In this document: one piece after another, positions 1 through 20,200 of the stretch | Numbering within the stretch: the stretch's first letter is position 1 | Layout of the letters: every line of letters begins with the position of its first letter | NCBI GenBank assembly: GCA_963678315.1 | Contig: OY782781.1 | Span: 1,536,001-1,600,000, forward strand | DNA from: Candidatus Cloacimonadales bacterium | GTDB taxonomy: Bacteria; Cloacimonadota; Cloacimonadia; Cloacimonadales; JAFGVF01 | DNA: 64,000 bases | Direction: 5' to 3' | Position numbers and translations under genes: made by a program | Notes under the pieces: model-generated | The model's input: the letters and a program-made list of their open reading frames with translations, nothing else | What the model was told of the DNA's origin: nothing | Database searches by the model: none

Positions 1-1419
1 CCAGATTACTGGTACAATACCTATAACATCCCAATCCCTAAATCAGGTGCTAAACTTGTAACCACTGGGAACGCTCGGCTGCTAGCCGGCTCTTCAATTC
101 CTCTCACTGGGAACGCTGGCATCCTTGCCGGCTCTTCAAACACTTTACCAGGAGGCACGTCAAATGACGTTCCCTTTCTACCTTCAGGAATAGTATTTTC
201 TCAAAGCTATCTCAACAAAAGCAACAAAAAAGTCGCAAAAATAAACGAGAAATATCTCTCTAAACTGGACACCTTAGACAAAGCTAAAGATGCTTCTTTT
301 CCAGGTGATCTATATTATTACTTCGGGAATGAGCTTTCCAAGCTGCTTCTAGCATCTTACTCCCAACAAAAAGTTCAGACCTATCGCAAAACCTCCAACA
401 GAGAAGGCCTAGCCCCTGTGCTGGCATCAGATTCTTTCGATATTGACTGGAATCTCACAGACGTCAAAGCTCTCCATGCTTTCAGACAACAGGCCTTCCA
501 AGTAGCTGGAGTTAATTGTGAAAACCTTAGACAGATGATAAAAGACCAAGCAGAAAAAGCCATTACTGAAGGTATTACATTTGCTGAATTTAGAGAAAAC
601 CTCAAGCTGAATGGATTCGAAGCGGATAATCCTTATCATCTCAAGACCAACTTCGAAACAGCCATCAATGGTGCTAAATCTGCAGCCAAATGGCAAGACA
701 TCCAGGAGTTAGAAGACATCTTTCCATATCTCAGGTATTTAACTATGAATGACGATGCTGTGCGAGAAGAACACAAAGCTTGGCATGGCTTAGTCTTACC
801 AGTAAATGATCTCTTCTGGAATGAAAGCTATCCACCTAATGGTTACGGTTGTAGATGTGATGTTGAACAAATCACAGAGGATGAAGCCAAAGAATCAAAG
901 CGTTTCGGAGATAAACCAGATCCAGAAACTAAAACCGATAATCACTTCAAAGGCAATCCAGGTAAAGACAATTCAATCTGGGGAAACTGGCTGAAAGAGC
1001 AGTCTTTAAAATCAACCGATCCTAGCGAGCTAAAGCTCAAAGACTGGTCAACCGTCAAAGGAACTAAAAAAGAGCCTGAAAAGCTTGTTTTTGCTAAAAC
1101 AGACGAGGCTAAAGACTATTTCAACGATAACATTGCTGGCTTAAATATAGATGTATGCAAATACCCTACTAATATCCCTGATTCACTCTTCAATAATATC
1201 AAAAGCAAACATCAAGATAAAATGTCTTTCATCAAACCAACTCTTGAGTCTCCTACAGAAGTCTGGACTGACTCCAACAACCACACCAACTACCTCAAGA
1301 AATACCCTTCAGGAACTTCTAAAATTGTTGTTAACATTGCAGGTGATGTTATAGAATTTGATATACCAGGAGAGAGTAAAATTGATATACTAAGAAAAGG
1401 GGATTGTGTGAAGAAGTAA
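1..1419 (+). CDS. Portal (gp29/DUF935-like C-terminus)-MuF (gp30/SPP1 gp7) head morphogenesis ORF with C-terminal PBECR2-like nuclease-fold domain; 5'-truncated by window
   Basis: Frame +1 is open from base 1 (PDYWYNTYNIPIPK..., gp29 C-term-like) into the 418 ORF; MuF motifs YLRYLTMNDDAVREEH..WHG and YPPNGYGCRC; C-terminal TLESPTEVW..YLKKY..LRKG. Confidence 0.8.
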   Translation, partial: PDYWYNTYNIPIPKSGAKLVTTGNARLLAGSSIPLTGNAGILAGSSNTLPGGTSNDVPFLPSGIVFSQSYLNKSNKKVAKINEKYLSKLDTLDKAKDASFPGDLYYYFGNELSKLLLASYSQQKVQTYRKTSNREGLAPVLASDSFDIDWNLTDVKALHAFRQQAFQVAGVNCENLRQMIKDQAEKAITEGITFAEFRENLKLNGFEADNPYHLKTNFETAINGAKSAAKWQDIQELEDIFPYLRYLTMNDDAVREEHKAWHGLVLPVNDLFWNESYPPNGYGCRCDVEQITEDEAKESKRFGDKPDPETKTDNHFKGNPGKDNSIWGNWLKEQSLKSTDPSELKLKDWSTVKGTKKEPEKLVFAKTDEAKDYFNDNIAGLNIDVCKYPTNIPDSLFNNIKSKHQDKMSFIKPTLESPTEVWTDSNNHTNYLKKYPSGTSKIVVNIAGDVIEFDIPGESKIDILRKGDCVKK

Positions 1420-9332: not shown

Positions 9333-10082
9333 TTATAGTTCGTTAGCTGCCTCTATAATATCAGATACTTCTAGTTTAGTTATACCTTTTTGCTTGCCAA
9401 TATACTCAAATTCTTTGATTATGGATTCTAATTGGTGAAGAGATCCTTTAGCCTTGTTTGCCATCATGCCATAAACATCTTTAGAAGCTGCAACTTCCAT
9501 TGATGAAACGGCTACTCCTAGCATATCAGCTAGATTTGGTACTTCAAATTGACAGAAGTTAGAACATCTATTGAAAAAGTGTGCGTTATACTTTTCTAAT
9601 CGTGCTTTTGTATCTTCTTCACCAATCATCATAATTTTTGCACCAGCAATATCTCTAAAATCTCTAATCAACTCAAGAACCTGCCACTTATGATGTTGTA
9701 TTGCTAAATTGACTTCATCAAAAATGAATACATAAGGCTCTATATCTGGACTTTGATCCCTAAGAAAACTCAACTCTCCAAATAAATCTATACAAGCCTT
9801 TGCAAGTGTTGACGATGTTCCTTTAATAGTTGTCTCATTGCCTGTTAAAGCATAGTTCAAACTTCGATATACTTCAGCTAAAAAACTTCTAGCTGTATCC
9901 ATTGTTTCAATCCTGTAATATCCCCATCCAGGTTTAGCAAAACTCTTCTTAGCAAAATGACTCTTTCCTGTTCCTGGATAACCGTATACCAATATCAGGT
10001 CTGCTCCCTTCTTGGTTAGCATCTTCTTCATTACCTTCTGCAATCGCTTAACATTTGCAGTTTCAAATAATACACTTTTCAT
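9333..10082 (-). CDS. MuB-like AAA+ transposition ATPase
   Basis: Walker A GYPGTGKS, Walker B FIFDE, directly downstream of the transposase. Confidence 0.88.
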   Translation of the reverse strand: MKSVLFETANVKRLQKVMKKMLTKKGADLILVYGYPGTGKSHFAKKSFAKPGWGYYRIETMDTARSFLAEVYRSLNYALTGNETTIKGTSSTLAKACIDLFGELSFLRDQSPDIEPYVFIFDEVNLAIQHHKWQVLELIRDFRDIAGAKIMMIGEEDTKARLEKYNAHFFNRCSNFCQFEVPNLADMLGVAVSSMEVAASKDVYGMMANKAKGSLHQLESIIKEFEYIGKQKGITKLEVSDIIEAANEL

Positions 10083-10146: not shown

Positions 10147-12924
10147 CTACCCAATCCCTAACTTCTTAAATGCTTCTTCATATTCTCTGTTTTTATCTTC
10201 ATCAACATGCGTTTGCTTGGCTGATTCTATCATTTCATCTGTTACAACTGGCTCTTTATTAGAAGTATCTTCAACTAGCTTATTAGCTTCTGTGATAGCA
10301 TTATCTAGAATTGAATCATCAATTGTAACATCTTCAGCTTGTGCATTAATTTTAGTTCTACTTGGTTTACCCTTATGTAGATGTAGCTTAGAAGCGTGTT
10401 TTTGGTTATTTTGAATCCTCTCCTGATCATCAATTGTGTTCTCAGAAGATTCAGCTAAAGCTCTGTGCATTCCCTTAACTGATCTTACACCATCTAAAGC
10501 ACTATAAACACTTCTTCCTATCTTCTCTCTGTGTTTAGTCTCAATATAAGATGCCATATCATCACCAACTTGAAGGGCAGGATAGACTATCTTAGCTTTC
10601 TCTTCAAAAACTTCTCCAAACTCAGATGCTATAGTAACCTCTGTTATATCTCTTTCATCATAGAAATATTGAACCTGTCTATTCTGTAGAGCCATAAACA
10701 TAGGATGTGAGTAGTATATACCATTAACAAAAATCTCTCCTCGATTAACTTTAGCCATTGATGGGTAAGGAAACTTCATTATCATATCTAACTTCTCTTT
10801 ACTGGGAACGCTGGCATCCTTGCCGGCAAGCTCTTCTGCATAAGCTTCTAATGGAGACATACTCTCACCTTTGCCATTAGTTAAAACTGATCTTTTTCGG
10901 TTGTTCCAAATCTCGATAAACTGCTTTAATAGCTCTTCATATTGTTCCCAAGTTGGGATATACTTACCATATTTCTTGATTAACTTCTTATTAGTTAATT
11001 TAAGAACTTCAGGTCTCTTTTCTATTTTGTTACCTATCCATACAGGAAAGGCTTTCTCAAATTGACTTACACAGAATCCCCAAAATGGCTCTATCATCTT
11101 ACTTTCAGGGTTACCAGGTATCGTGAATGAATAACTTATCCCTAGATTTTTATATAAACCATTGTCTCCTCTAGCTATCATCTCAAGAGCCTTCTTTTTT
11201 GATGCAGTATTTCTTTTCTTACCTGCATAAAAGTGTGGAGTGTGATTAACATTCTTATAGCCAGATCCATTATCAACTCTAATCTGTGCTGGAACTCCAA
11301 AATGCTCAATCCCATCTCTAAGCGAAGTCCTAACTACATTTTGATTCTCAGCTATACATAATGCATGGCCTGTGATAACACCAGTTGCTATATCATACCA
11401 AGCTATCAGCTGTGGCCTCACTAAAAATCTTAGTGTAGGCTTGTGAGCATAAAAAGGTGAATAAATCAAGTTATTCATTGGATGACCATCACTCTCCCAG
11501 ATATCTCCAGGCATTGCATTATTAATCCTATGAACATGTGGTCTAATCGAATCCTTGTAAGCTTTCTTACCTTTAGCTCTAGCAACAGCCATAGCATCTT
11601 TTCTCGCCTCTGTGACAATATTTAACACCGTACGTGGTGATATTGGCATCTCTTGACCTACACAGGTAAACTCTTCTTCAATCAGTCTATATATCTCAGT
11701 TGATTTGATATCCCTGAAATCTACAGCTAACTTCTTAATCTTACTTTCAAGAGAACTAGAAACAACTTTCTTCCTTCCTGAAGATCCTTTCCTGTGCTCT
11801 AACAAACTAATTGGGTATTTAGTATTACCAGAATCTCTTAAAGCCTTTTCCCACTTCTTAATTGTCTTAATTGATATAGTTACTACATCAAGCTGTTTCA
11901 TAACATTAGAAAGTATTTCACGATTGTTAAGCTTTATCTCAAAATCTCTACCTGCTTTAGTTAATGATATTTTGTTAGCTTTAGCATAATCTCTAAACTT
12001 CAAGTACTCATCAACTATTGCCTTCTTATTCCAAGCTCTATTTTTCTCTTCACTTGTGTGTATCTCAAATTCTTGTTGTTCCTTAAGTAAAACTACACTC
12101 AAAGAGTTACTACTCTTCATGATCTCTGCTTGCCACTTCATCTGAACATCTTGAGTAAATCCATCAACCTTGATATAAGTCTTAAACTTGCTAACCTTGT
12201 CTGGCATGGTTACTGCAAATAACTCTTGTGAAGAAATCTTATTGTATATAGTTCTTCTTGAATATCCTGAAAGCCCAACTGCTCGATCTATCGGAATCCA
12301 CTTCAAAGAATTTTTCAGTTCCTTCTCATCAATCCACTCAGGAGTGTCCACTTTAAGAATGTCCACTTTAAGAATGTCCACTTTAGAAGTGTCCAGTTTA
12401 GCAATGTCCAGTTTATGAGATTGTTTTTCAGAATCAGAAGTGTCCAGTTTAGATAAATTTTCTTTTCTAGTTTCGTTAGATTTTGTAAATTGGACACCCT
12501 TTTTTCCAATGTCCAGTTTAGAATTATCTTTTTTAGCAATGTCCAATTTAGCTAAAGCACTATTTTTTAGCACTTTTCCTACTTTTTGGACATTACATTT
12601 AACGCTTTTTAATGTACTTTGCACAGCCGGCTGTGCAAAACCATGTCCACTTTGATGGCTTTTCTCATTTTCTGGGACAAAAAAATTAGGTTCATGAACT
12701 AAAGTGTCCAGTTTAGAAATCTCCTCTTTTGAAGAAATATTTCTCTCTTGAGAACAGCTTCCCTCAGAAGTGTCCAATTTAGAATCATACCACACAAGTA
12801 TAGTAGGACGACCAGGACCTACCTGTTCTTCTTTAGTCTTCCAGATCCCTTTCTTAATCTGCCTTCGAATAGTCTTAACTGACTTATCTAACCTGTCAGC
12901 CACTTCTTTAATTCTTAACCACAT
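10147..12924 (-). CDS. MuA-like DDE transposase
   Basis: N-terminal HTHs, WESDGH, VDNGSGY, PGNPESKMIEPFW, C-terminal GEIFVNGIYYS...YFYDERD. Confidence 0.93.
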   Translation of the reverse strand: MWLRIKEVADRLDKSVKTIRRQIKKGIWKTKEEQVGPGRPTILVWYDSKLDTSEGSCSQERNISSKEEISKLDTLVHEPNFFVPENEKSHQSGHGFAQPAVQSTLKSVKCNVQKVGKVLKNSALAKLDIAKKDNSKLDIGKKGVQFTKSNETRKENLSKLDTSDSEKQSHKLDIAKLDTSKVDILKVDILKVDTPEWIDEKELKNSLKWIPIDRAVGLSGYSRRTIYNKISSQELFAVTMPDKVSKFKTYIKVDGFTQDVQMKWQAEIMKSSNSLSVVLLKEQQEFEIHTSEEKNRAWNKKAIVDEYLKFRDYAKANKISLTKAGRDFEIKLNNREILSNVMKQLDVVTISIKTIKKWEKALRDSGNTKYPISLLEHRKGSSGRKKVVSSSLESKIKKLAVDFRDIKSTEIYRLIEEEFTCVGQEMPISPRTVLNIVTEARKDAMAVARAKGKKAYKDSIRPHVHRINNAMPGDIWESDGHPMNNLIYSPFYAHKPTLRFLVRPQLIAWYDIATGVITGHALCIAENQNVVRTSLRDGIEHFGVPAQIRVDNGSGYKNVNHTPHFYAGKKRNTASKKKALEMIARGDNGLYKNLGISYSFTIPGNPESKMIEPFWGFCVSQFEKAFPVWIGNKIEKRPEVLKLTNKKLIKKYGKYIPTWEQYEELLKQFIEIWNNRKRSVLTNGKGESMSPLEAYAEELAGKDASVPSKEKLDMIMKFPYPSMAKVNRGEIFVNGIYYSHPMFMALQNRQVQYFYDERDITEVTIASEFGEVFEEKAKIVYPALQVGDDMASYIETKHREKIGRSVYSALDGVRSVKGMHRALAESSENTIDDQERIQNNQKHASKLHLHKGKPSRTKINAQAEDVTIDDSILDNAITEANKLVEDTSNKEPVVTDEMIESAKQTHVDEDKNREYEEAFKKLGIG
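12344..12780. repeat. Array of RTGTCCANTTT motifs inside the transposase gene
   Basis: 11 direct copies (five tandem at 15-bp period), one perfect and one imperfect inverted copy. Confidence 0.9.
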
Positions 12925-13127
12925 AACTTAACCTCTTCTCTTCTGGGTACGCAATCATCCTGGTTGCCTCTTAATGGGTTGCATTCATCTTGAATGCGAT
13001 TCATCTCTTCGATTCCCCATCTAACCACTAAACCCATTGAACAAAGTAAGCAGTCCATCTTACTTATTATAAGGAGGAGGATTTGCCGTGATAGACTGCT
13101 TACAAGTATCAAAACTATACAATTCAT
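12915..13127 (-). CDS. Small hypothetical early protein
   Basis: AAGGAG RBS, overlaps transposase start; 3' part consists of hairpin repeats. Confidence 0.4.
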   Translation of the reverse strand: MNCIVLILVSSLSRQILLLIISKMDCLLCSMGLVVRWGIEEMNRIQDECNPLRGNQDDCVPRREEVKLCG

Positions 13128-13206
13128 TCTTCCTTCTCCTTCTTATTTTTTTAGCTATTAAATAGCCATAAGAGCCTGCACCACGCATGATGCAGGTTAC
13201 TTGTGG

Positions 13207-13473
13207 TTATTTATGGTTAGAGGTTACGTGTCCTAGGTTAGCATTATTTCCTTGACCATTTAGAGATGTTATTTTATCAATTGCCTTACTTATGGATTGA
13301 GCTTGTGACTTCAGCTTGCCGGCATTAATAGTCACTTGCTCTTCTTTATGCTCCAAATCATAGTTTTTAGCTCTTAAAACGGCATTATCCTGTACCAATT
13401 CACTTATCTTTCCACTAGCTATCAAATACTCTACTATTACTACTACTGATAATATTACTACTGCTGTTGTCAT
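13207..13473 (-). CDS. Hypothetical early protein (TM plus coiled coil)
   Basis: GAGGAG RBS before ATG 13473 (MTTAVVILSVVVIV...). Confidence 0.55.
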   Translation of the reverse strand: MTTAVVILSVVVIVEYLIASGKISELVQDNAVLRAKNYDLEHKEEQVTINAGKLKSQAQSISKAIDKITSLNGQGNNANLGHVTSNHK

Positions 13474-13475
13474 AG

Positions 13476-13565
13476 CTATTCTCCTCTTATATATTCTGCT
13501 ATCAAATCTGCTATCCTGAACACTACCCATATTACTGGAAGCACTATTAAAACTGTTATCATCAT
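13476..13565 (-). CDS. 29 aa single-TM peptide (absent from ORF track)
   Basis: MMITVLIVLPVIWVVFRIADLIAEYIRGE*; ATGA overlap with the upstream stop, ends 2 nt before the next start. Confidence 0.5.
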   Translation of the reverse strand: MMITVLIVLPVIWVVFRIADLIAEYIRGE

Positions 13566-13834
13566 TCACCTGCCACCAGCTTGTATTGTTCTTCTGATAT
13601 TGGTTCAACAAAGCTAGGTACTTTCTGGTTGCTAGAACTAGGTTTAAACACTATTCTCCTGGTATTTACGTTATATGATAGTAATGAATTACCTTCAAAT
13701 GTCATTGATAAGACTGCACTAATACCTTTAGGAATTGCATTGAAATTTAAATTCCTAAGTATAACTTTAAAATCTGCTGTAAATTGAGACTTTACTTCAG
13801 GATCGATAATTTCATAATGTATTGTTTTATTCAT
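13562..13834 (-). CDS. Hypothetical early protein
   Basis: Tightly packed ORF in early operon. Confidence 0.55.
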   Translation of the reverse strand: MNKTIHYEIIDPEVKSQFTADFKVILRNLNFNAIPKGISAVLSMTFEGNSLLSYNVNTRRIVFKPSSSNQKVPSFVEPISEEQYKLVAGE

Positions 13835-14060
13835 TACTTTCATCCTCTGTTTTTAACTCATCTATCAAGTCTTCTAAGGAGTCATCATAGGAGTTGCCAC
13901 TACCGAGTAATTGATCTATTCCATACCTTCCGTATGATTCATAATTAGCTTCTGAATCTGTTCCTTTCACAGCCTCATCTATCAAATCTTTTGCTTCTTT
14001 TATTAATTCTTGTGCTTGTCTTATCAATTCAATTCTATCTGTATTACTTAATGAATTCAT
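13827..14060 (-). CDS. Hypothetical acidic early protein
   Basis: 77 aa ORF with GGAG RBS in early operon. Confidence 0.6.
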   Translation of the reverse strand: MNSLSNTDRIELIRQAQELIKEAKDLIDEAVKGTDSEANYESYGRYGIDQLLGSGNSYDDSLEDLIDELKTEDESNE

Positions 14061-14068
14061 TATTGCTC

Positions 14069-14344
14069 CTAATTACTTTTCTGTTTGTTCATTGCTGTTT
14101 GATTAAATTCAATTGCTTCTGTAGGTATTTTTCTAAATTCAGTTACCCAGTCTCCTAATAGATCCCAGATAACTCTTTCTATAGTCCTATTACTACGTTT
14201 CCTATTTACAATCTTAGTGATATAGCTTGTTGAATAATCACTATCTAACACCATGTTCACATGCTCAGTTAGTATCTCCTGAGTCATACAAAATGACGCT
14301 AAAGCTGATTTTATTTCTGCAGGTTTAAACTTCTGTTTTATCAT
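14069..14344 (-). CDS. Ner/Cro-like small regulator
   Basis: First gene divergent from the repressor; EIKSALASFCMTQEIL...STSYITKIVNRKRSNR HTH-like. Confidence 0.6.
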   Translation of the reverse strand: MIKQKFKPAEIKSALASFCMTQEILTEHVNMVLDSDYSTSYITKIVNRKRSNRTIERVIWDLLGDWVTEFRKIPTEAIEFNQTAMNKQKSN

Positions 14345-14372
14345 TGTAACTCACTCCTATAAATTTTTTTTC

Positions 14373-14468
14373 TTGACCGTTGTAACCTTTCCGGGTTAAT
14401 GTCCGATATGTGACAACATTGCTCCATTATGGAACAATGTCAAGAAATAATTACCGTATTGGAGCATT
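14373..14468. promoter_or_regulatory. Divergent promoter/operator region
   Basis: Near-perfect IR acattgctcca-tta-tggaacaatgt (14416-14440) overlapping a minus-strand TTGACA; second site with tggagca half-site at 14450-14466. Confidence 0.65.
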
Positions 14469-14473
14469 AAATA

Positions 14474-15205
14474 GTGAAAGAAATTGCTAATAGACTTCGT
14501 AAAGTACGACAGGAACTTGATTTAACTCAACAACAATTTTGTGATAAAATTGAAGTTTCTAGAGGTACTTTTTCTAGATATGAGAGTGGATTACGTTCAC
14601 TTCCAGATGAAGTTAAACAAAAGCTGCTCCAATTTGGAGTCAATCTGCATTGGCTTCTTACTGGTAATGGTCCAATGTTCTTAAATCAAGAATCTACTAA
14701 ACCCAAAACTAAAGTTGAAGCAAATGTTGATAGATTACAACATTATATTGATTTAGGGAAAGCCCAAGCTCATCAAGATATTAGCTTAAATTCAGAAGAT
14801 GTTAACTATAGAACTCTACCTATTACAGGAGAAATAGCAGCAGGAAACCCTATTGAAATAAGAGATGTAGATCTCCTGGGTAAGATATTAGTCTCTGCTG
14901 ATATTATTGATGATATAGCTAACTTCTACTGCTTCAGAGTAAATGGATGGAGCATGAGTCCAGAGGTTCAACACGGTGATGTTGTTATTATTAACAAGAT
15001 CTACGACTGGGAAGACCTGGACAACCGTATTGTAGCTGTCAGAATAGATGATGGAGTTACTCTCAAGGTCCTTAAACTGGATCATGACAATCAATGCTCC
15101 TGGCTTATGCCTATTAATGATGACTACAAACCTATTCTCTTAAATGAATTCAGCACCGTGGTGGTTCTCGGTGTTATGGAATTCTTAATAAGATCGTATA
15201 AATAG
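14474..15205 (+). CDS. Prophage repressor, XRE HTH plus S24 (LexA/CI-type) peptidase
   Basis: LRKVRQELDLTQQQFC..SRYESG; GEIAAG cleavage site; GWSMSP Ser; TLK Lys. Confidence 0.92.
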   Translation: MKEIANRLRKVRQELDLTQQQFCDKIEVSRGTFSRYESGLRSLPDEVKQKLLQFGVNLHWLLTGNGPMFLNQESTKPKTKVEANVDRLQHYIDLGKAQAHQDISLNSEDVNYRTLPITGEIAAGNPIEIRDVDLLGKILVSADIIDDIANFYCFRVNGWSMSPEVQHGDVVIINKIYDWEDLDNRIVAVRIDDGVTLKVLKLDHDNQCSWLMPINDDYKPILLNEFSTVVVLGVMEFLIRSYK

Positions 15206-15260
15206 CATACTATAAAAGTGTTTCCAAATGGTAACACTTATCTATCATAAAGGAGGAATT

Positions 15261-15446
15261 ATGAAGACTTTGACACGAATGAATTTAATGTTATCTATTG
15301 TACTTTATTCACTTTTTGCAGTAGGTGGAGTAAGAAACAACAAATGGCTAGAGGAAACAGATAATAGCGAGATTAGACTTACGGTATCATGCTCTTATGC
15401 CATAAATACCCAGATTGATTTCTTAATTCGTAAAGTACAGTTATAA
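15261..15446 (+). CDS. Small hypothetical signal/TM protein or remnant
   Basis: AAGGAGG RBS, hydrophobic N-terminus. Confidence 0.4.
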   Translation: MKTLTRMNLMLSIVLYSLFAVGGVRNNKWLEETDNSEIRLTVSCSYAINTQIDFLIRKVQL

Positions 15447-15457
15447 TTGGTTGTACA

Positions 15458-16792
15458 ATGATTGAATTTAAAGATAAAGAAAACAGTTGTTTATTTCAGA
15501 ATCTACTATGGGATACAGTAAATAATATATTAGACATAACCCAAACAGCACCATTAATCTGTAAAACAAATAGAATGTATCAGGTTAAATTAAATCAATA
15601 TTTTTTTATGTTCTTCAAAAAATATGGAACTAAGAAAGGTGAAGGATATGAACTTTCAATCAACTCTAATTCACCAATAAAAATGACTTTTGATAAAATT
15701 AAGAGTCAACAAAGAGCAATAGACACAGCTCTAAAAAATTTACCTAATAGTATTTTTCTTAGTATTGTATCGCAGTATGATTACTTCTATGGAAATTTAC
15801 TTAGAATCATATATACTCTAAGTCCACAAAGGAGAAACCATATTGCTAAAACGATATCATTCACTGACCTTGAAAACTATGTGACCATCGAAGAAGCTAG
15901 AAACTCATTTATTCAGAAAGAGATTGATAAGTCATTAAGAGATAGTCATGAAAAACAATTAGAAACTTTAGGAAAACTGTTGGCAGATAAAGGTAAAGAT
16001 CATAATTTCTCAAGTTACAAAAGATGGACAGAATTCTTAGAAATCTTTGAAAGAAGGAATCTTATGGTGCATTGTGGAGGTAAAGTAAATAAGACCTACT
16101 TAAAAAACCACAAAAGTTTGTTTCCGGAGATTACAGAAGATACAACTCTTGAAATAAGTTTGGATTATTTAAGTAAATCAAGTGACATAATTCTTGATAT
16201 ATGTATCCAGCTAATTTTATTAAGTTGGAATGTAATAGAAGATATAGATAATCAAAATGTTATGCCTTCTGTTATGGTTGATTTATCTTATGGTTTAATG
16301 ATTGATAAACAATACCAGCTTATAATATATATATTAGAAAGTTATCTTCAAAACAAAAAATTCAAGATTGACGAAACTGAAAAATTCATTCTTACTATAA
16401 ACCTAGCTCAAGCTTATAAATGGAATGGACAAACAGAAAAAATGGGTTGTCTATTATCCAAGACTAACTGGGATACAAAGAAACTCCTACTCAGGTTTTC
16501 AGTACATGTACTTCGCGATGAGTTTAAAAAGGCGTTTGATTGCTTAAGAAAGATTAGTAAGATTGATGAAGATTTTAAGAAAAACGATTTACTTGAATGG
16601 CCTTTGTTCAAAGATTTACGCCAAGAAAGTGATTTCGGAGCTGTATTCAAGGAATGCTATAATGAAGACTACATTGATAACAAATACATCTTACAAAAAG
16701 AGGATTGTGAATTATTAAGCGAATTAGATGATATTGATGATAAACAAGTTAAACGTGATATTGAATTTGTAGAAAAAATTTTTCTCAAATAA
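15458..16792 (+). CDS. HEPN-motif protein, candidate defence/Abi RNase
   Basis: IFLSIVSQYDYF helix and EIFERRNLMVHCGG (R-N-x3-H) motif; helical C-terminal region. Confidence 0.65.
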   Translation: MIEFKDKENSCLFQNLLWDTVNNILDITQTAPLICKTNRMYQVKLNQYFFMFFKKYGTKKGEGYELSINSNSPIKMTFDKIKSQQRAIDTALKNLPNSIFLSIVSQYDYFYGNLLRIIYTLSPQRRNHIAKTISFTDLENYVTIEEARNSFIQKEIDKSLRDSHEKQLETLGKLLADKGKDHNFSSYKRWTEFLEIFERRNLMVHCGGKVNKTYLKNHKSLFPEITEDTTLEISLDYLSKSSDIILDICIQLILLSWNVIEDIDNQNVMPSVMVDLSYGLMIDKQYQLIIYILESYLQNKKFKIDETEKFILTINLAQAYKWNGQTEKMGCLLSKTNWDTKKLLLRFSVHVLRDEFKKAFDCLRKISKIDEDFKKNDLLEWPLFKDLRQESDFGAVFKECYNEDYIDNKYILQKEDCELLSELDDIDDKQVKRDIEFVEKIFLK

Positions 16793-16794
16793 TT

Positions 16795-17018
16795 TTTCTC
16801 GTTTATTCTTTCCATTTTAAAAGACCCAGCTTAGTTAAATTTCTCGTTTATTATTGCGAACTTTTAGCTAAACTAGGTCTTAATATTTTTTCTCGTTTAT
16901 TTCTGCGAAATTCTCAAAATTTCCACTTTTTTCTCATTTATTGTAAATGTCCATAAACCCCAACAAAGCCACTCACAACACAGCAGAACCCGTTTTTTAG
17001 TTTATCTCTTTTATTCTT
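16795..17018. repeat. Prophage terminal repeats, putative transposase-binding sites
   Basis: TTTCTCGTTTATT-type direct repeats at 16795, 16840, 16889, 16930, 17003. Confidence 0.75.
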
Positions 17019-17210
17019 ACCCCCCTTAGAAAAGTAGTTTTTCTTAAAGGTTTAAGTGAAGACATAGGTTCTAGGGTATGCTATGTGTCTTCTTCCTTGT
17101 GGTATATGCAATAAGTCCCTCCATAAGGCAAGGGTAGGCAGACTAAGCTGACAATCTGCTGTTACTATCAAGCTAATAATTATGTTAGTAAAAAAAATAA
17201 TTTTATAAAA

Positions 17211-17238
17211 TTGACACTTTTAAGTGAAATTGTATAAT
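17211..17238 (+). promoter_or_regulatory. Sigma70-type promoter
   Basis: TTGACA-N16-TATAAT upstream of the 17263 gene. Confidence 0.7.
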
Positions 17239-17262
17239 ATACCATAAGTGATAGGTGGTGAA

Positions 17263-20200
17263 ATGAATAAAACTAAGAAGATATACAAGTTGATAATTCT
17301 CATAATTGTAATGATGCTACCGCTTGTTTTAAATGCAAATGATATAGCACGAAAGCAAGTCATAGTTGTGCAATCATACAATAATCAATTTCCTTATGTA
17401 AGAGAGATACAAGATGGAATTAATAATGTATCTAAAACATATAAGAAATTTATGGATATTAACACAGTATACATAGATCTTGACAAGGAGGGTTTTAAAG
17501 AATCAGCCAGCAGATTGAAAATGTATTTATCTAATTTTTCGAGCATAGATGGGCTTATTGTAGTTGATTCACCTGCTTATGATGTCTTGACAAGCAATGA
17601 ATTTATATCTTTTAGAAATGTTCCGATTGTAATAGTTTCAAATGATGATATCAGACACTCCAACTATTCCTATTTCAAGAATACTATTCTTCTTAATGAA
17701 GAAGTATCAATTGGACCAACCTTATCCCTAGCTGTAAAGTTGTATCCACAGGCTAGAAATGTATATGTCTTAACAAACTCAAATTCAGAAGTTTATCATG
17801 GACAATATATGCAGATTGCAGAGTCTTTCAATGAAAGCTCTGAATACAATATTGAATTTGTTGATAATATGAAATATGAAGATTTTGTAAAATTTGTTGA
17901 TTCTATTAGGAATGAAAGTATAATAATTCTAGGATCTTATGAATTTTCTGATGGGAGTAGCAACTTTAATATTGAAATCCCTTTAAAGCTTCTGTCAAAC
18001 AACAAAAACAATAAAATATTTACAATATATAAGCATCATATTTTAGGAGATGTGATAGGTGGAAGTGCTGTAGATTTTAATTTTCTAGGGCAAGAATCAG
18101 TTAGATTAATAATGGAGTTAATTAGTAAAAGTTCAATAAAAAAGAGTTTTGATGTTGTATCTTTTAAAAATGAATATTATTTTAATAATGATGCCTTAAA
18201 GAAACTCAACATTTCAAGAGATAAGTTACCTCTTAAAAAAGAAATTATTGGTTTAAGCAACTGGAAAAAAGAGAAGACTAGTCCGATAATTATAATTATT
18301 TTAACAATCCTAATAATATTTAGTTTGCTTGTAACCATACTAGTTTTCCATTATAAAATTTCCTCCCTCAATCAGAAGAGAAGGAACAATAATATACTTG
18401 AAGTACTAAGATTTGTTTCCGAAAAACTATCATTAGGATTTTGGTGCTATAACAATAAGAAACAGAAGATCAAAAGCTCAAAATATTTATCTCAAATAAT
18501 AGACTTAAATGATTCTGGTGTTTATGGTATTGACGAAGTTAAGTCTTTTTTAGATAACTGTAAATTTGAAAGAAACAACATAGATGCTGTTACTGAACTC
18601 TTCACTAAGGGTGAACACGAAAGACCATTCACATATATTAATAAACAAGGTCTATCATACAATCTGACGAATTTCTGGAAAGTATTTGATGACACAGAGC
18701 ATATATTTGGTGTAGTGAAAAATAACCAATTAGATATTGATAAGAAAAACGAGTTAGATTATTATAAACAATATAAAATTGTTTTAATTGAAAACAGTAA
18801 TGATTGTATAATTATAACTAATTCAAAAGGTGGATTGCTTAATTATAATGATAGTGCACAGAAGCTTGTAAATAAGTTATTTCAGCTTTCCAATAGTAAT
18901 AAAGAAGATTCTACTATAATCGAAAACTTTTTGAAAACATACCTAAGTAAGTATATTCAAAGAGCTAAGTTTAAAAAGCAGATAAAAGATAGTTTCTATG
19001 TTGAGAGTATAAGTAATTTTCTTGAAGTTAGAATTACTACTTATGCAAGTAATTATGATAAAGAGATTATAATTATCATAAAAGAACAATTTACTCAGAC
19101 AAATTATACAAGTTTTCTCAACATAATTGATAAAAATAATGTGCAATCTTTACTTTCACAAAATATATCCTTCTGGGAATATAGCTATGCTTCAAAGGAG
19201 TTTGCCTTTAGTAAAAATGTGAAATATCTTTTAGATATTGAGACTAATATAGAGCAACTATCTAAAACAGAAATACTAAAAATTATCAATAGCAAAATAG
19301 GACATGAAGTATATAGCCAAATCCGTAGCCATATTGAAGATAATAAGAAGAACATTTATGTAAAAGCAGAGTATAAACCAAATAGTACTAGTATCCATTG
19401 GCTCAAAATAGTTGGTAAAAGAGTATTCAACTCAAATCTAAATTGTTATCTCATTGTTGGAATTATTGAGGATATAACAGAAACTGAGGAAATTAAGCAT
19501 AAGACTGAGCAAGTATTAGCTGAGTTAGATGAACGTGACGGAAAGATTAAAGAATTAAATAGCTCGATTGAATCAATTAAACAAGAGATAGAAAACAAAT
19601 ATTGTTCCAAGGTTGATAGGCTATTAACAGAGATTGAACATTTGAACTATATGGACGATTCAATACTAGATATTAAGACTGATTCGGTTATAAAGAAGTT
19701 GATTACTGGAATATATCATAAGGTTAACGAACCCATGAGTGTTCTCAACCTAGCGATGCAGTCTATTTATTTAGAGCTTGAAGATATATTTGTTAAACTA
19801 TATGAGCTGTCAGATAAATTATCAACAGATGAATGGGGACTTGTTTCTAGCTTATTTAAGGAAGTAATAAAGAGTCGTAATAAAGTAGATCCAGATGAAA
19901 GAATAGATGAAAATGAATTACTTGACAGTGAAACAATTATTGAGAATTCCTCTGCTGGTTCTTCAATCAGATTGTCTAATCTAATAGTACTACTAGGCTA
20001 TCAATCAAGGCTTAAAGAAATAAAATCACTCACGTCAAGTGTTCATAATATTGAGATATTTACATTGTTAGTTAATGCAAAGAATCTAATAAAACTCATA
20101 ACTTATAGTAAGTTTAGCTCTAAGAAGATAAATCATTCCCTTGATTCATTAAAACTCTTACAGAATGGGACATCTGATTTAAGATATGAAAAGAGGGATT

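Follow-up and report, generated by a model that had tools for sequence, protein, structure and literature searches.

Why does a phage transposase gene carry so many copies of one short word in the DNA for a low-complexity linker near its start, and what might read them? The question is raised by a Mu-like prophage in a 64-kb stretch of a Candidatus Cloacimonadales genome (the window, by which we mean the whole 64,000 nucleotides (nt) analysed), where RTGTCCANTTT, or AAANTGGACAY on the coding strand, is repeated in an array inside the gene for a MuA-like DDE transposase. Our computational analysis strongly supports the view that selection acts on this array at the level of DNA and not of the peptide. 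The reading that we favour, and hold to be reasonably probable, is that the transposase binds these words through its own N-terminal domain and that the array acts as an internal enhancer of the Mu type. The features on which the argument turns are as follows (aa, amino acids).

12344..12780, minus strand: word array (AAANTGGACAY on the coding strand), 13 words, 11 sense and 2 antisense (12487 and, imperfect, 12583)
10147..12924, minus strand: gene for the MuA-like DDE transposase, 925 aa (Pfam Mu-transpos_C and Foldseek match 4fcy_B)
12784..12924, minus strand: segment encoding the N-terminal winged helix (aa 1-47), which is presumed to read the words (Pfam HTH_17 and AlphaFold2 model)
12331..12774, minus strand: DNA for a linker predicted to be disordered, aa 51-198 (full-length AlphaFold model)
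12169..12300, minus strand: segment encoding a further winged helix, aa 209-252 (in the model strand 209-211, helices 212-219 and 223-231, strands 237-241 and 247-252)
12618..12639, no strand: perfect 22-bp palindrome, TTTGCACAGCC followed by GGCTGTGCAAA, the local form of a conserved dyad with 7-bp arms

An exact search of the window for RTGTCCANTTT gives 13 matches, 12 of them within 12344-12780 and one distant, at 262-272 on the minus strand. Eleven copies of the array lie on the plus strand (12344, 12359, 12374, 12389, 12404, 12440, 12509, 12539, 12643, 12704 and 12770) and one exact inverted copy lies on the minus strand at 12487; an imperfect inverted copy at 12583 has its TGGACA core at 12587 (context TTTTTGGACATT). 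The positions of the 11 direct and two inverted copies had been listed in an earlier note on this DNA (the original prediction) and all were recovered here, with 13 matches where shuffled windows held 0.45 on average and 2 at most (0 of 100 shuffles attained 13). The whole 2.99-Mb genome contains 28 copies, 12 in the array and 16 outside it, and we regard these 16 as background because a reversed control pattern gives 29 copies genome-wide. The hexamer TGGACA/TGTCCA occurs 13 times in the 437 bp of the array, 1053 times in the genome (0.35 per kb) and 11 times in the remaining prophage, where the word is at background level. Tandem Repeats Finder detects just the 15-nt tandem section of the array (12345-12415, 4.7 copies). 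The array starts 4 nt past the segment that codes for the N-terminal domain and covers aa 49-194 in protein coordinates, that is, the DNA of the disordered linker. As had been proposed, this linker stands between two helix-turn-helix (HTH) regions, aa 2-45 and aa 209-252; in the model its predicted local distance difference test score (pLDDT) is below 50 throughout (block means 26-32, final block 44), with no secondary structure. We rejected a promoter or terminator identity of the array, since promoter-like sites in 12000-14600 are at expectation (10 against 10.6) and terminator-like sites there number 0. A known RNA family was likewise rejected, Rfam giving no match at E up to 0.1 across 11500-17300.

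The encoded peptide follows the word only in part. Ten of the 13 window copies encode K-[LV]-D-[TI], the KLDT/KVDI majority described earlier; the copy at 12643 is in another frame and encodes QSGH, and the inverted copies at 12487 and 12583 encode GVQF and NVQK, which bears out the original prediction's description in full. The word is built of rare codons, GAC, CTG, TTG and GTG making up 20%, 4%, 10% and 8% of their codon families. Synonymous resampling of the window array, with a codon table taken from this genome only, as in all such resampling here, gave a mean of 0.21 copies where 11 are observed; for 14 arrays of the family introduced below the means were 0.05-0.86 and the maximum 5, against 7-12 observed.

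Relatives were gathered from 61 related genomes (34 with a match at E up to 0.001), from GTDB species genomes (24 loci, 23 of them Cloacimonadota/Cloacimonadales metagenome-assembled genomes by title and one Ratteibacteria) and from IMG/VR (8 loci). Among them we collected 29 transposase genes with an N-terminal winged helix, 25 of which hold one 8-mer at least 5 times within their first 780 nt; L019 has 6 copies of a degenerate word, and the remaining exceptions are L009 (3 copies), L020 (3) and L046 (2). As a control, 46 of 3831 windows of 780 nt in this genome attain at least 5 copies of an 8-mer. The arrays use about 13 distinct words: TGGACA is found in 9 loci, and the others are CAGATGGT, CAGAGTGMCA, AGTGACGACA, CAAYGTGCCA, CAAWGTGCAA, CAACCCTTCA, GACTTAACAAC, CAAAGGAAC, CGACAACC and three 9-nt tandem types. 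In all 26 arrays the onset lies at aa 48-74, right behind the N-terminal domain, and the words stand in the sense orientation 253 times and in the antisense orientation twice, both antisense ones belonging to this window. The remainder of these transposase genes holds 1 word copy in total. Genome-wide the words are near-private to the arrays, with 22 of 23 copies inside them in G009, 6 of 7 in G005 (CAAYGTGCCA), 11 of 11 in the record of L056 and, for CAAWGTGCAA in G007, 22 of 31. Several related Mu-like elements may share a genome (three in G007, at least four in G005), mostly with different words. A word-indexed protein search with aa 1-50 returned one relative, P0002, and therefore taught us little about spread; separate genes for the N-terminal domain near the short G048 transposases were sought by tblastn in 9 loci and none was found, bar L046/L010.

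Dense word clusters also lie upstream of some related transposase genes: ATAGGCGA occurs 9 times in L050 at 1-270, about 3.3 kb upstream of the gene, the linker array of L050 itself being weak; CAAAGCAA occurs 24 times in L045 at 400-1400; and AGAATTGA occurs 11 times in L057 at 1-1200. These may be end sites or external arrays. The host genome has 8-mer arrays of its own, GGAGTTAG / CTAACTCC, with up to 14 copies per 780 nt (868141, 1783081, 1854841, 1966381 and 1989781).

Across the family the word occurs in two or three reading frames in 19 of the 26 arrays, and the peptide therefore differs where the word is kept. Examples are given below.

L018, word CAAYGTGCCA: peptides QRA and NVP
L013, word CAAAGTGCAA: three frames, QSA, KVQ and KCK
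L056, word ATTGGACA: peptides QLDI, PIGH and NWTP
L027, word CAGATGGACA: peptides QMDT and SDGH
L028, word AGTGACGACA: peptides SDDx and SVTT

Coordinated change of the words is seen at orthologous sites too. Gene nt 159, 204 and 312 have flanks that are kept, and there the word reads GTGCCA in one lineage and GTGCAA or GTGCAG in its sister; the GTGCCA/GTGCAA difference includes a synonymous GCC/GCA site, and in another frame it exchanges P and Q. In a peptide tandem repeat the peptide would be kept and synonymous sites would be free, which is part of what the original prediction had named as refuting selection on DNA, the other part being that no phage protein binds the motif. What the relatives present is the reverse, a word that is kept and a peptide that varies. 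Frames, codon resampling and orthologous positions together strongly support selection on DNA, as had been proposed for the window, and they extend it to the whole family.

Which protein would read such words? The gene that bears the array belongs, judged from its modelled structure and its Pfam profile, to the MuA family of DDE transposases, with a Mu-type core and C-terminal domain. Mu-transpos_C scores 25.4 bits, above its cutoff of 21.7, and DDE_2 scores 19.2 bits, under its own; Foldseek with the full-length AlphaFold model, built on 14 homologues, places 4fcy_B (the Mu transpososome) at the top (E 4.9e-16), followed by TnsB, and returns 1bcm_B at E 4.5e-12. A phmmer search of the protein against the PDB reached E 0.02 at best. 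At the N-terminus the full-length model contains a winged helix spanning aa 2-45, and Pfam HTH_17 matches aa 2-26 (E 6.9e-6, 26.7 bits, slightly under the cutoff of 27). Modelled alone (AlphaFold2, 21 sequences), this domain forms a confident E-H-H-E-E winged helix with a pLDDT of 87.6. Its best fold match in the PDB is Xis of mycobacteriophage Pukovnik (4j2n, E 0.04, template modelling score (TM) 0.64, 35% identity), with further matches to BldC (6amk) and a phage P2 DNA-binding protein (4lhf); the Mu repressor DNA-binding domain (1qpm) ranks 33.

The comparisons indicate that the word follows this domain and not the catalytic core. Nine loci with a (K/E)T[IV]RR domain, 47-65% identical to that of the window, all have TGGACA arrays of 6-13 copies, and their cores are 21-59% identical to the window transposase. 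Nine other loci, with cores 41-51% identical, a different helix and domains 27-29% identical, have no sense TGGACA and three other words instead (one of them, L014, has one antisense TGGACA hexamer). A natural swap points in the same direction. L011 and L062 encode proteins that are 96-100% identical from about aa 130, with upstream open reading frames (ORFs) 77-97% identical and downstream DNA 91% identical; their DNA homology is lost at gene nt 100-352 only, which is the wing of the domain plus the array, and there the word changes from GGTGGACAC to CAGATGGT. The check put forward in the original prediction, whether homologous transposases carry different arrays that covary with the HTH, thus comes out positive.

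A third line of support is an array outside the gene. The G033 element has a KTIRRR domain and a short linker without an array, and a non-coding stretch of 350 bp between its end-type sites (TTTCTCAACAATTATTGCCAA) and the repressor gene holds TCACATGGACAT 6 times directly and once inverted; no TCACATGGACAT cluster is present at its other end. The array is thus a DNA element able to sit inside or outside the gene. In both this prophage and the G033 element TGGACA points inward from the repressor-proximal end. Together, covariation, swap and external array lend indirect support to binding of the words by the transposase N-terminus.

In the contig of the G033 element, a perfect 127-bp direct repeat was seen just outside the ends of this element of about 24 kb (G033:C148 42187-42313 and 17586-17712; L065 and L063). 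It is far longer than a Mu-type target duplication.

The prophage around the window array is Mu-like, about 32.8 kb long and bounded by inverted clusters of a 21-bp site, TTTCTCGTTTATTnTTGCGAA, which differs from the TGGACA word. An ATPase partner, Mu-type early and late genes and multi-site inverted ends make up its setting, and the neighbouring genes match AAA_22 ATPase, GemA, DUF3164, Phg_2220_C and Phage_Mu_F in Pfam. The parts that concern us are the following.

9333..10082, minus strand: gene for a MuB-like AAA ATPase, adjoining the transposase gene (Pfam AAA_22, E 3.4e-7)
14474..15205, plus strand: repressor-like gene, divergent from the early operon (Pfam HTH_3/HTH_19 and Peptidase_S24)
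16795..17064, plus strand: repressor-proximal prophage end with 5 end-type sites of the TTTCTCGTTTATTnTTGCGAA type (16795, 16840, 16889, 16930 and 17003)

The repressor-proximal cluster spans window 16795-17018 and its inverted counterpart lies at genome 1520304-1520528; each end carries three to five sites, in inverted order, and both share a terminal word (window 17039-17057 and genome 1520293-1520275). A target-site duplication was not recognisable at these ends, and the strict end-site pattern of this prophage has 0 matches in 14 relatives' loci. The array is internal, 4.3-4.7 kb from the repressor-proximal end. We rejected the array words as prophage end sites, since the ends were located with a different 21-bp site and the word is at background elsewhere.

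Word copies flank a second conserved element. The 22-bp palindrome at 12618-12639 is unique in the genome, where perfect GC-rich palindromes whose arms reach 11 bp or more number only about 14. At the same place in 10 of 10 genes of this transposase family we find an inverted repeat with 7-bp arms around CCGG, in three forms (TGACACA/TGTGTCA, TGGCAGA/TCTGCCA and TGCACAG/CTGTGCA). Its arms covary: 70 of 70 cells are paired, with compensatory changes at 3 of 7 pairs and no one-sided changes; 0 of 500 shuffles attained the covariation score, and slid controls pair 21-44%. RNAalifold predicts the same helix, and 12330-12800, taken as sense RNA, has a better predicted fold than its shuffled versions (z -3.47). 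The peptides across the dyad vary (TQPGVS, ADPALP, AEPGLP, AQPAVQ and THPAVS), and its forms are independent of the word type; the two prophages of G009 have one common word and differing dyad forms. The dyad may act as an RNA hairpin, a cruciform or a dimer site. An antisense-terminator reading was dropped, as the antisense T-run after the stem is present in most relatives and not in the window. Other transposase families, too, have GC-rich palindromes next to their arrays, with arms of 8-13 bp (L021, L009, L007, L020 and L028, within the first 780 nt), that of L009 having 13-bp arms, TGTTGAGGTTGAT/ATCAACCTCAACA.

We suggest that the N-terminal winged helix reads the words written in the DNA of the linker directly behind it. 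Bound to the array, 4.3-4.7 kb in from the repressor-proximal end, transposase molecules would help to unite the two prophage ends, which bring their own, different site, and by analogy the array would work like the internal activation sequence (IAS), or E element, of Mu. What the data show is that the words are under selection as DNA, covary with the domain, are unlike the end sites and may stand outside the gene; binding by the winged helix and the role as enhancer are inferred. In this respect the three roles named in the original prediction have fared differently: the enhancer fits best, the G033 array lying outside the gene and near an end; an autoregulatory operator is a live rival; and an iteron origin is unsupported because the gene encodes a DDE transposase. 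For a lambda O-type iteron origin the gene would have to encode a replication initiator, which it does not; no search was made for an adjoining AT-rich unwinding tract.

Several observations weigh against the array as a set of sites for the transposase's own domain with an enhancer function. Seven of the 26 arrays use a single frame, and tandem duplication alone gives copies on the same strand and in the same frame. Copy number drifts, and slippage is evident because P0002, which is 97% identical, is one 15-nt unit short. The spacings of the words are irregular, with a range of 7-183 nt (15 nt where the window array is tandem, 11/19 in L018), and the array lies 4.3-4.7 kb from the end, compared with about 1 kb in Mu, with no operator overlap. 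The words were selected post hoc as the commonest k-mer of each locus and several loci are near-duplicates (L018/L014/L019, L015/L016/L057 and L021/L022), so that array counts overstate independence; since many loci are near-duplicates, the independent lineages are better counted as about 13 words than as 26 arrays. L046 has the domain without an array, and L009 holds 3 copies. In the transposase of Fusobacterium phage phiRTG5 the domain is present with a short linker and no array, and tblastn of the 52-aa domain against 50,697 cultured-phage records gave no match at E up to 0.01. L011 and L062 have one and the same recognition helix, TIRRRIKK, and the wing would therefore have to carry their difference in specificity. 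Finally, the fold matches of the N-terminal domain are weak, at E 0.04 or above with none at or below 0.001, and HTH_17 falls just under its cutoff.

The explanation closest to the favoured one keeps the N-terminal domain as the binder and changes what binding does; we give it perhaps one chance in a handful. In a roadblock, bound transposase would impede transcription of its own gene; in a cis-tether, the nascent domain would be caught by the DNA that immediately follows the segment encoding it, and the transposase would act on its own copy. The onset of the arrays would suit either, being 4 nt after the domain segment in the window and at aa 48-74 in all 26 arrays, and co-resident elements with different words, as in G007 and G005, favour a private, cis-acting specificity. 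Against this, in G033 the array stands upstream of the transposase gene by about 0.9-1.2 kb, past the divergent repressor gene, and a roadblock therefore cannot act on the transposase transcript there and co-translational capture becomes less direct; the two G009 prophages, moreover, have one word in common. We think it improbable that the words are instead sites for another phage or host protein, be it the repressor, a Ner/Cro-like protein, the 8786 HTH protein or Phg_2220_C as an iteron-binding initiator. Candidates are at hand, a repressor-like gene and small ORFs lying upstream and Phg_2220_C and HTH proteins downstream, but between L011 and L062 such neighbours are kept (upstream ORFs 77-97%, downstream DNA 91%) and the word and the transposase N-terminus differ. 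Repressor-like C-terminal parts are 60-69% identical among elements with three different words, which is weak evidence because the HTH is not covered. An initiator reading is further opposed by the gene itself, which encodes a transposase and not a replication initiator; Phg_2220_C as binder, with an iteron origin, had been offered in the original prediction and found no support, the word tracking the transposase N-terminus where the neighbours are 77-97% identical.

That the array is a peptide repeat, or a slippage-prone low-complexity linker with the word as a functionless by-product, is close to refuted. It would suit the ten K[LV]D[TI] copies, the 15-nt tandem part with its differences in copy number, and the 7 single-frame arrays. 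It does not suit the 19 multi-frame arrays, the two inverted window copies or the concerted changes at orthologous positions, synonymous GCC/GCA site included, and we rejected it on the frames, the rare codon use and the non-coding G033 array. Equally unlikely, in our estimate, is an RNA-level element in the transposase mRNA, made of a repeated protein-binding or regulatory word and a hairpin. The 253:2 excess of sense words, the fold of the sense RNA and the covarying hairpin are what one would look for in such an element, yet in G033 the array is not part of the transposase transcript and sits downstream of the repressor gene, which runs the opposite way; because of that orientation, RNA from the repressor gene would carry the complement of the word. 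The blank Rfam result and the independence of hairpin alleles from word type also speak against it.

If the array is indeed read by the transposase's own domain as an enhancer, domain and sites on one short stretch of DNA would form a portable specificity cassette. We tentatively extend this to a swappable addressing cassette, a conjecture that we rate as possible and below the enhancer reading itself, in which the winged helix and the array in its own linker mark each phage for its own transposase, perhaps with cis capture of the nascent protein. Rapid diversification would be expected of such a cassette, since a disordered linker can accommodate any word whatever the frame; related elements could reside together without cross-activation, and the dyad might be a supercoil-sensitive hinge in the role of the IHF site of Mu.

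The known system nearest to the array is the E element of Mu, which an excerpt of its description gives as two clusters of MuA sites separated by an IHF site (PMC3145075). The likeness, as far as that excerpt goes, lies in an internal cluster of presumed transposase sites that are unlike the end sites, on the repressor side and split by a central element (PMC3145075), and in a transposase that is MuA-like by fold. The differences are that the present array is inside the transposase coding sequence and 4.3-4.7 kb from the end instead of about 1 kb, and that its central element is a covarying dyad and not a recognised IHF site. Operator overlap and a DNA-binding domain shared by repressor and transposase were not found here, by Pfam families: the repressor-like protein matches HTH_19, HTH_31 and HTH_3, and the transposase N-terminus matches HTH_17. 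The presumed reading domain is Xis/HTH_17-like, and the Mu repressor domain 1qpm stands at rank 33.

For the embedding of sites in a gene the parallel is lambda O, in which iterons lie mid-gene and additional iterons lengthen the protein by residues, according to part of one account (PMC7466680). As in that partial account, sites for the protein's N-terminal DNA-binding part would lie within its own coding sequence (PMC7466680); here the array codes for a linker predicted to be disordered, and its copy number alters protein length. Unlike lambda O, the protein is a DDE transposase and not a replication initiator, and the words are multi-frame and far more numerous and varied. The domain itself resembles proteins that use direct repeats: extracts of the respective papers have BldC binding direct repeats as multimers (PMC5859096) and Apl sites as direct repeats one helical turn apart (PMC7498355). 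The N-terminal domain has its best fold matches in 4j2n, 6amk and 4lhf, and its presumed sites are direct repeats (253:2), as in the Xis/Apl/Cox/BldC group; it differs in being fused to a transposase and in a spacing of 7-183 nt, not a helical turn, and the fold matches are at E of at least 0.04. The analogy that we consider best supported is thus a Mu-type enhancer embedded in the manner of lambda O.

Between Mu and D108 the N-terminal specificity cassette includes the repressor and the operators and is intergenic. Transposase N-terminus and internal sites change together there, as they do between L011 and L062, whereas here the cassette would comprise the domain together with the DNA that encodes its linker. 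To our knowledge no transposable phage other than Mu has an internal enhancer that has been characterised, and we know of little documentation of co-evolution between enhancer and transposase N-terminus beyond Mu and D108. Among the titles and abstract openings searched, none described a transposase gene with arrays of sites within it, and 'Cloacimonadota' is absent from the literature matches listed. Nature has supplied some 13 domain-word pairs in this family, together with a clean swap and lineages one base apart in the word, by which both a recognition code of the winged helix and the need for the enhancer become directly testable. It would also be a case of dual coding, a regulatory DNA array overprinted on a protein linker in up to three frames, and such overprinting would explain the odd low-complexity repeats of these transposases, which annotators and repeat finders would otherwise take for peptide repeats.

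One word copy in the prophage lies outside the array, at 262-272, beside an end-type site.

233..272, minus strand: lone central pair, a perfect end-type site (core 240-252) 9 nt from the RTGTCCANTTT copy at 262-272

The genome has 6 perfect TTTCTCGTTTATT cores, every one in this prophage. The copy at 262-272 encodes KLDT in frame, with rare codons, within a Phage_Mu_F-like gene, and the pair is near the exact centre of the prophage, about 16.0 and 16.8 kb from the termini, a position reminiscent of the central gyrase site of Mu. No extra word copy that could be a counterpart was found in the G009 prophage regions or the record of L056, and the pair may be peculiar to this phage or a product of chance. 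The gene that holds it (window 1-1419, plus strand) encodes a Phage_Mu_F domain fused to a PBECR2 nuclease-like domain, in an open frame that extends leftward beyond the window to 836 aa in total.

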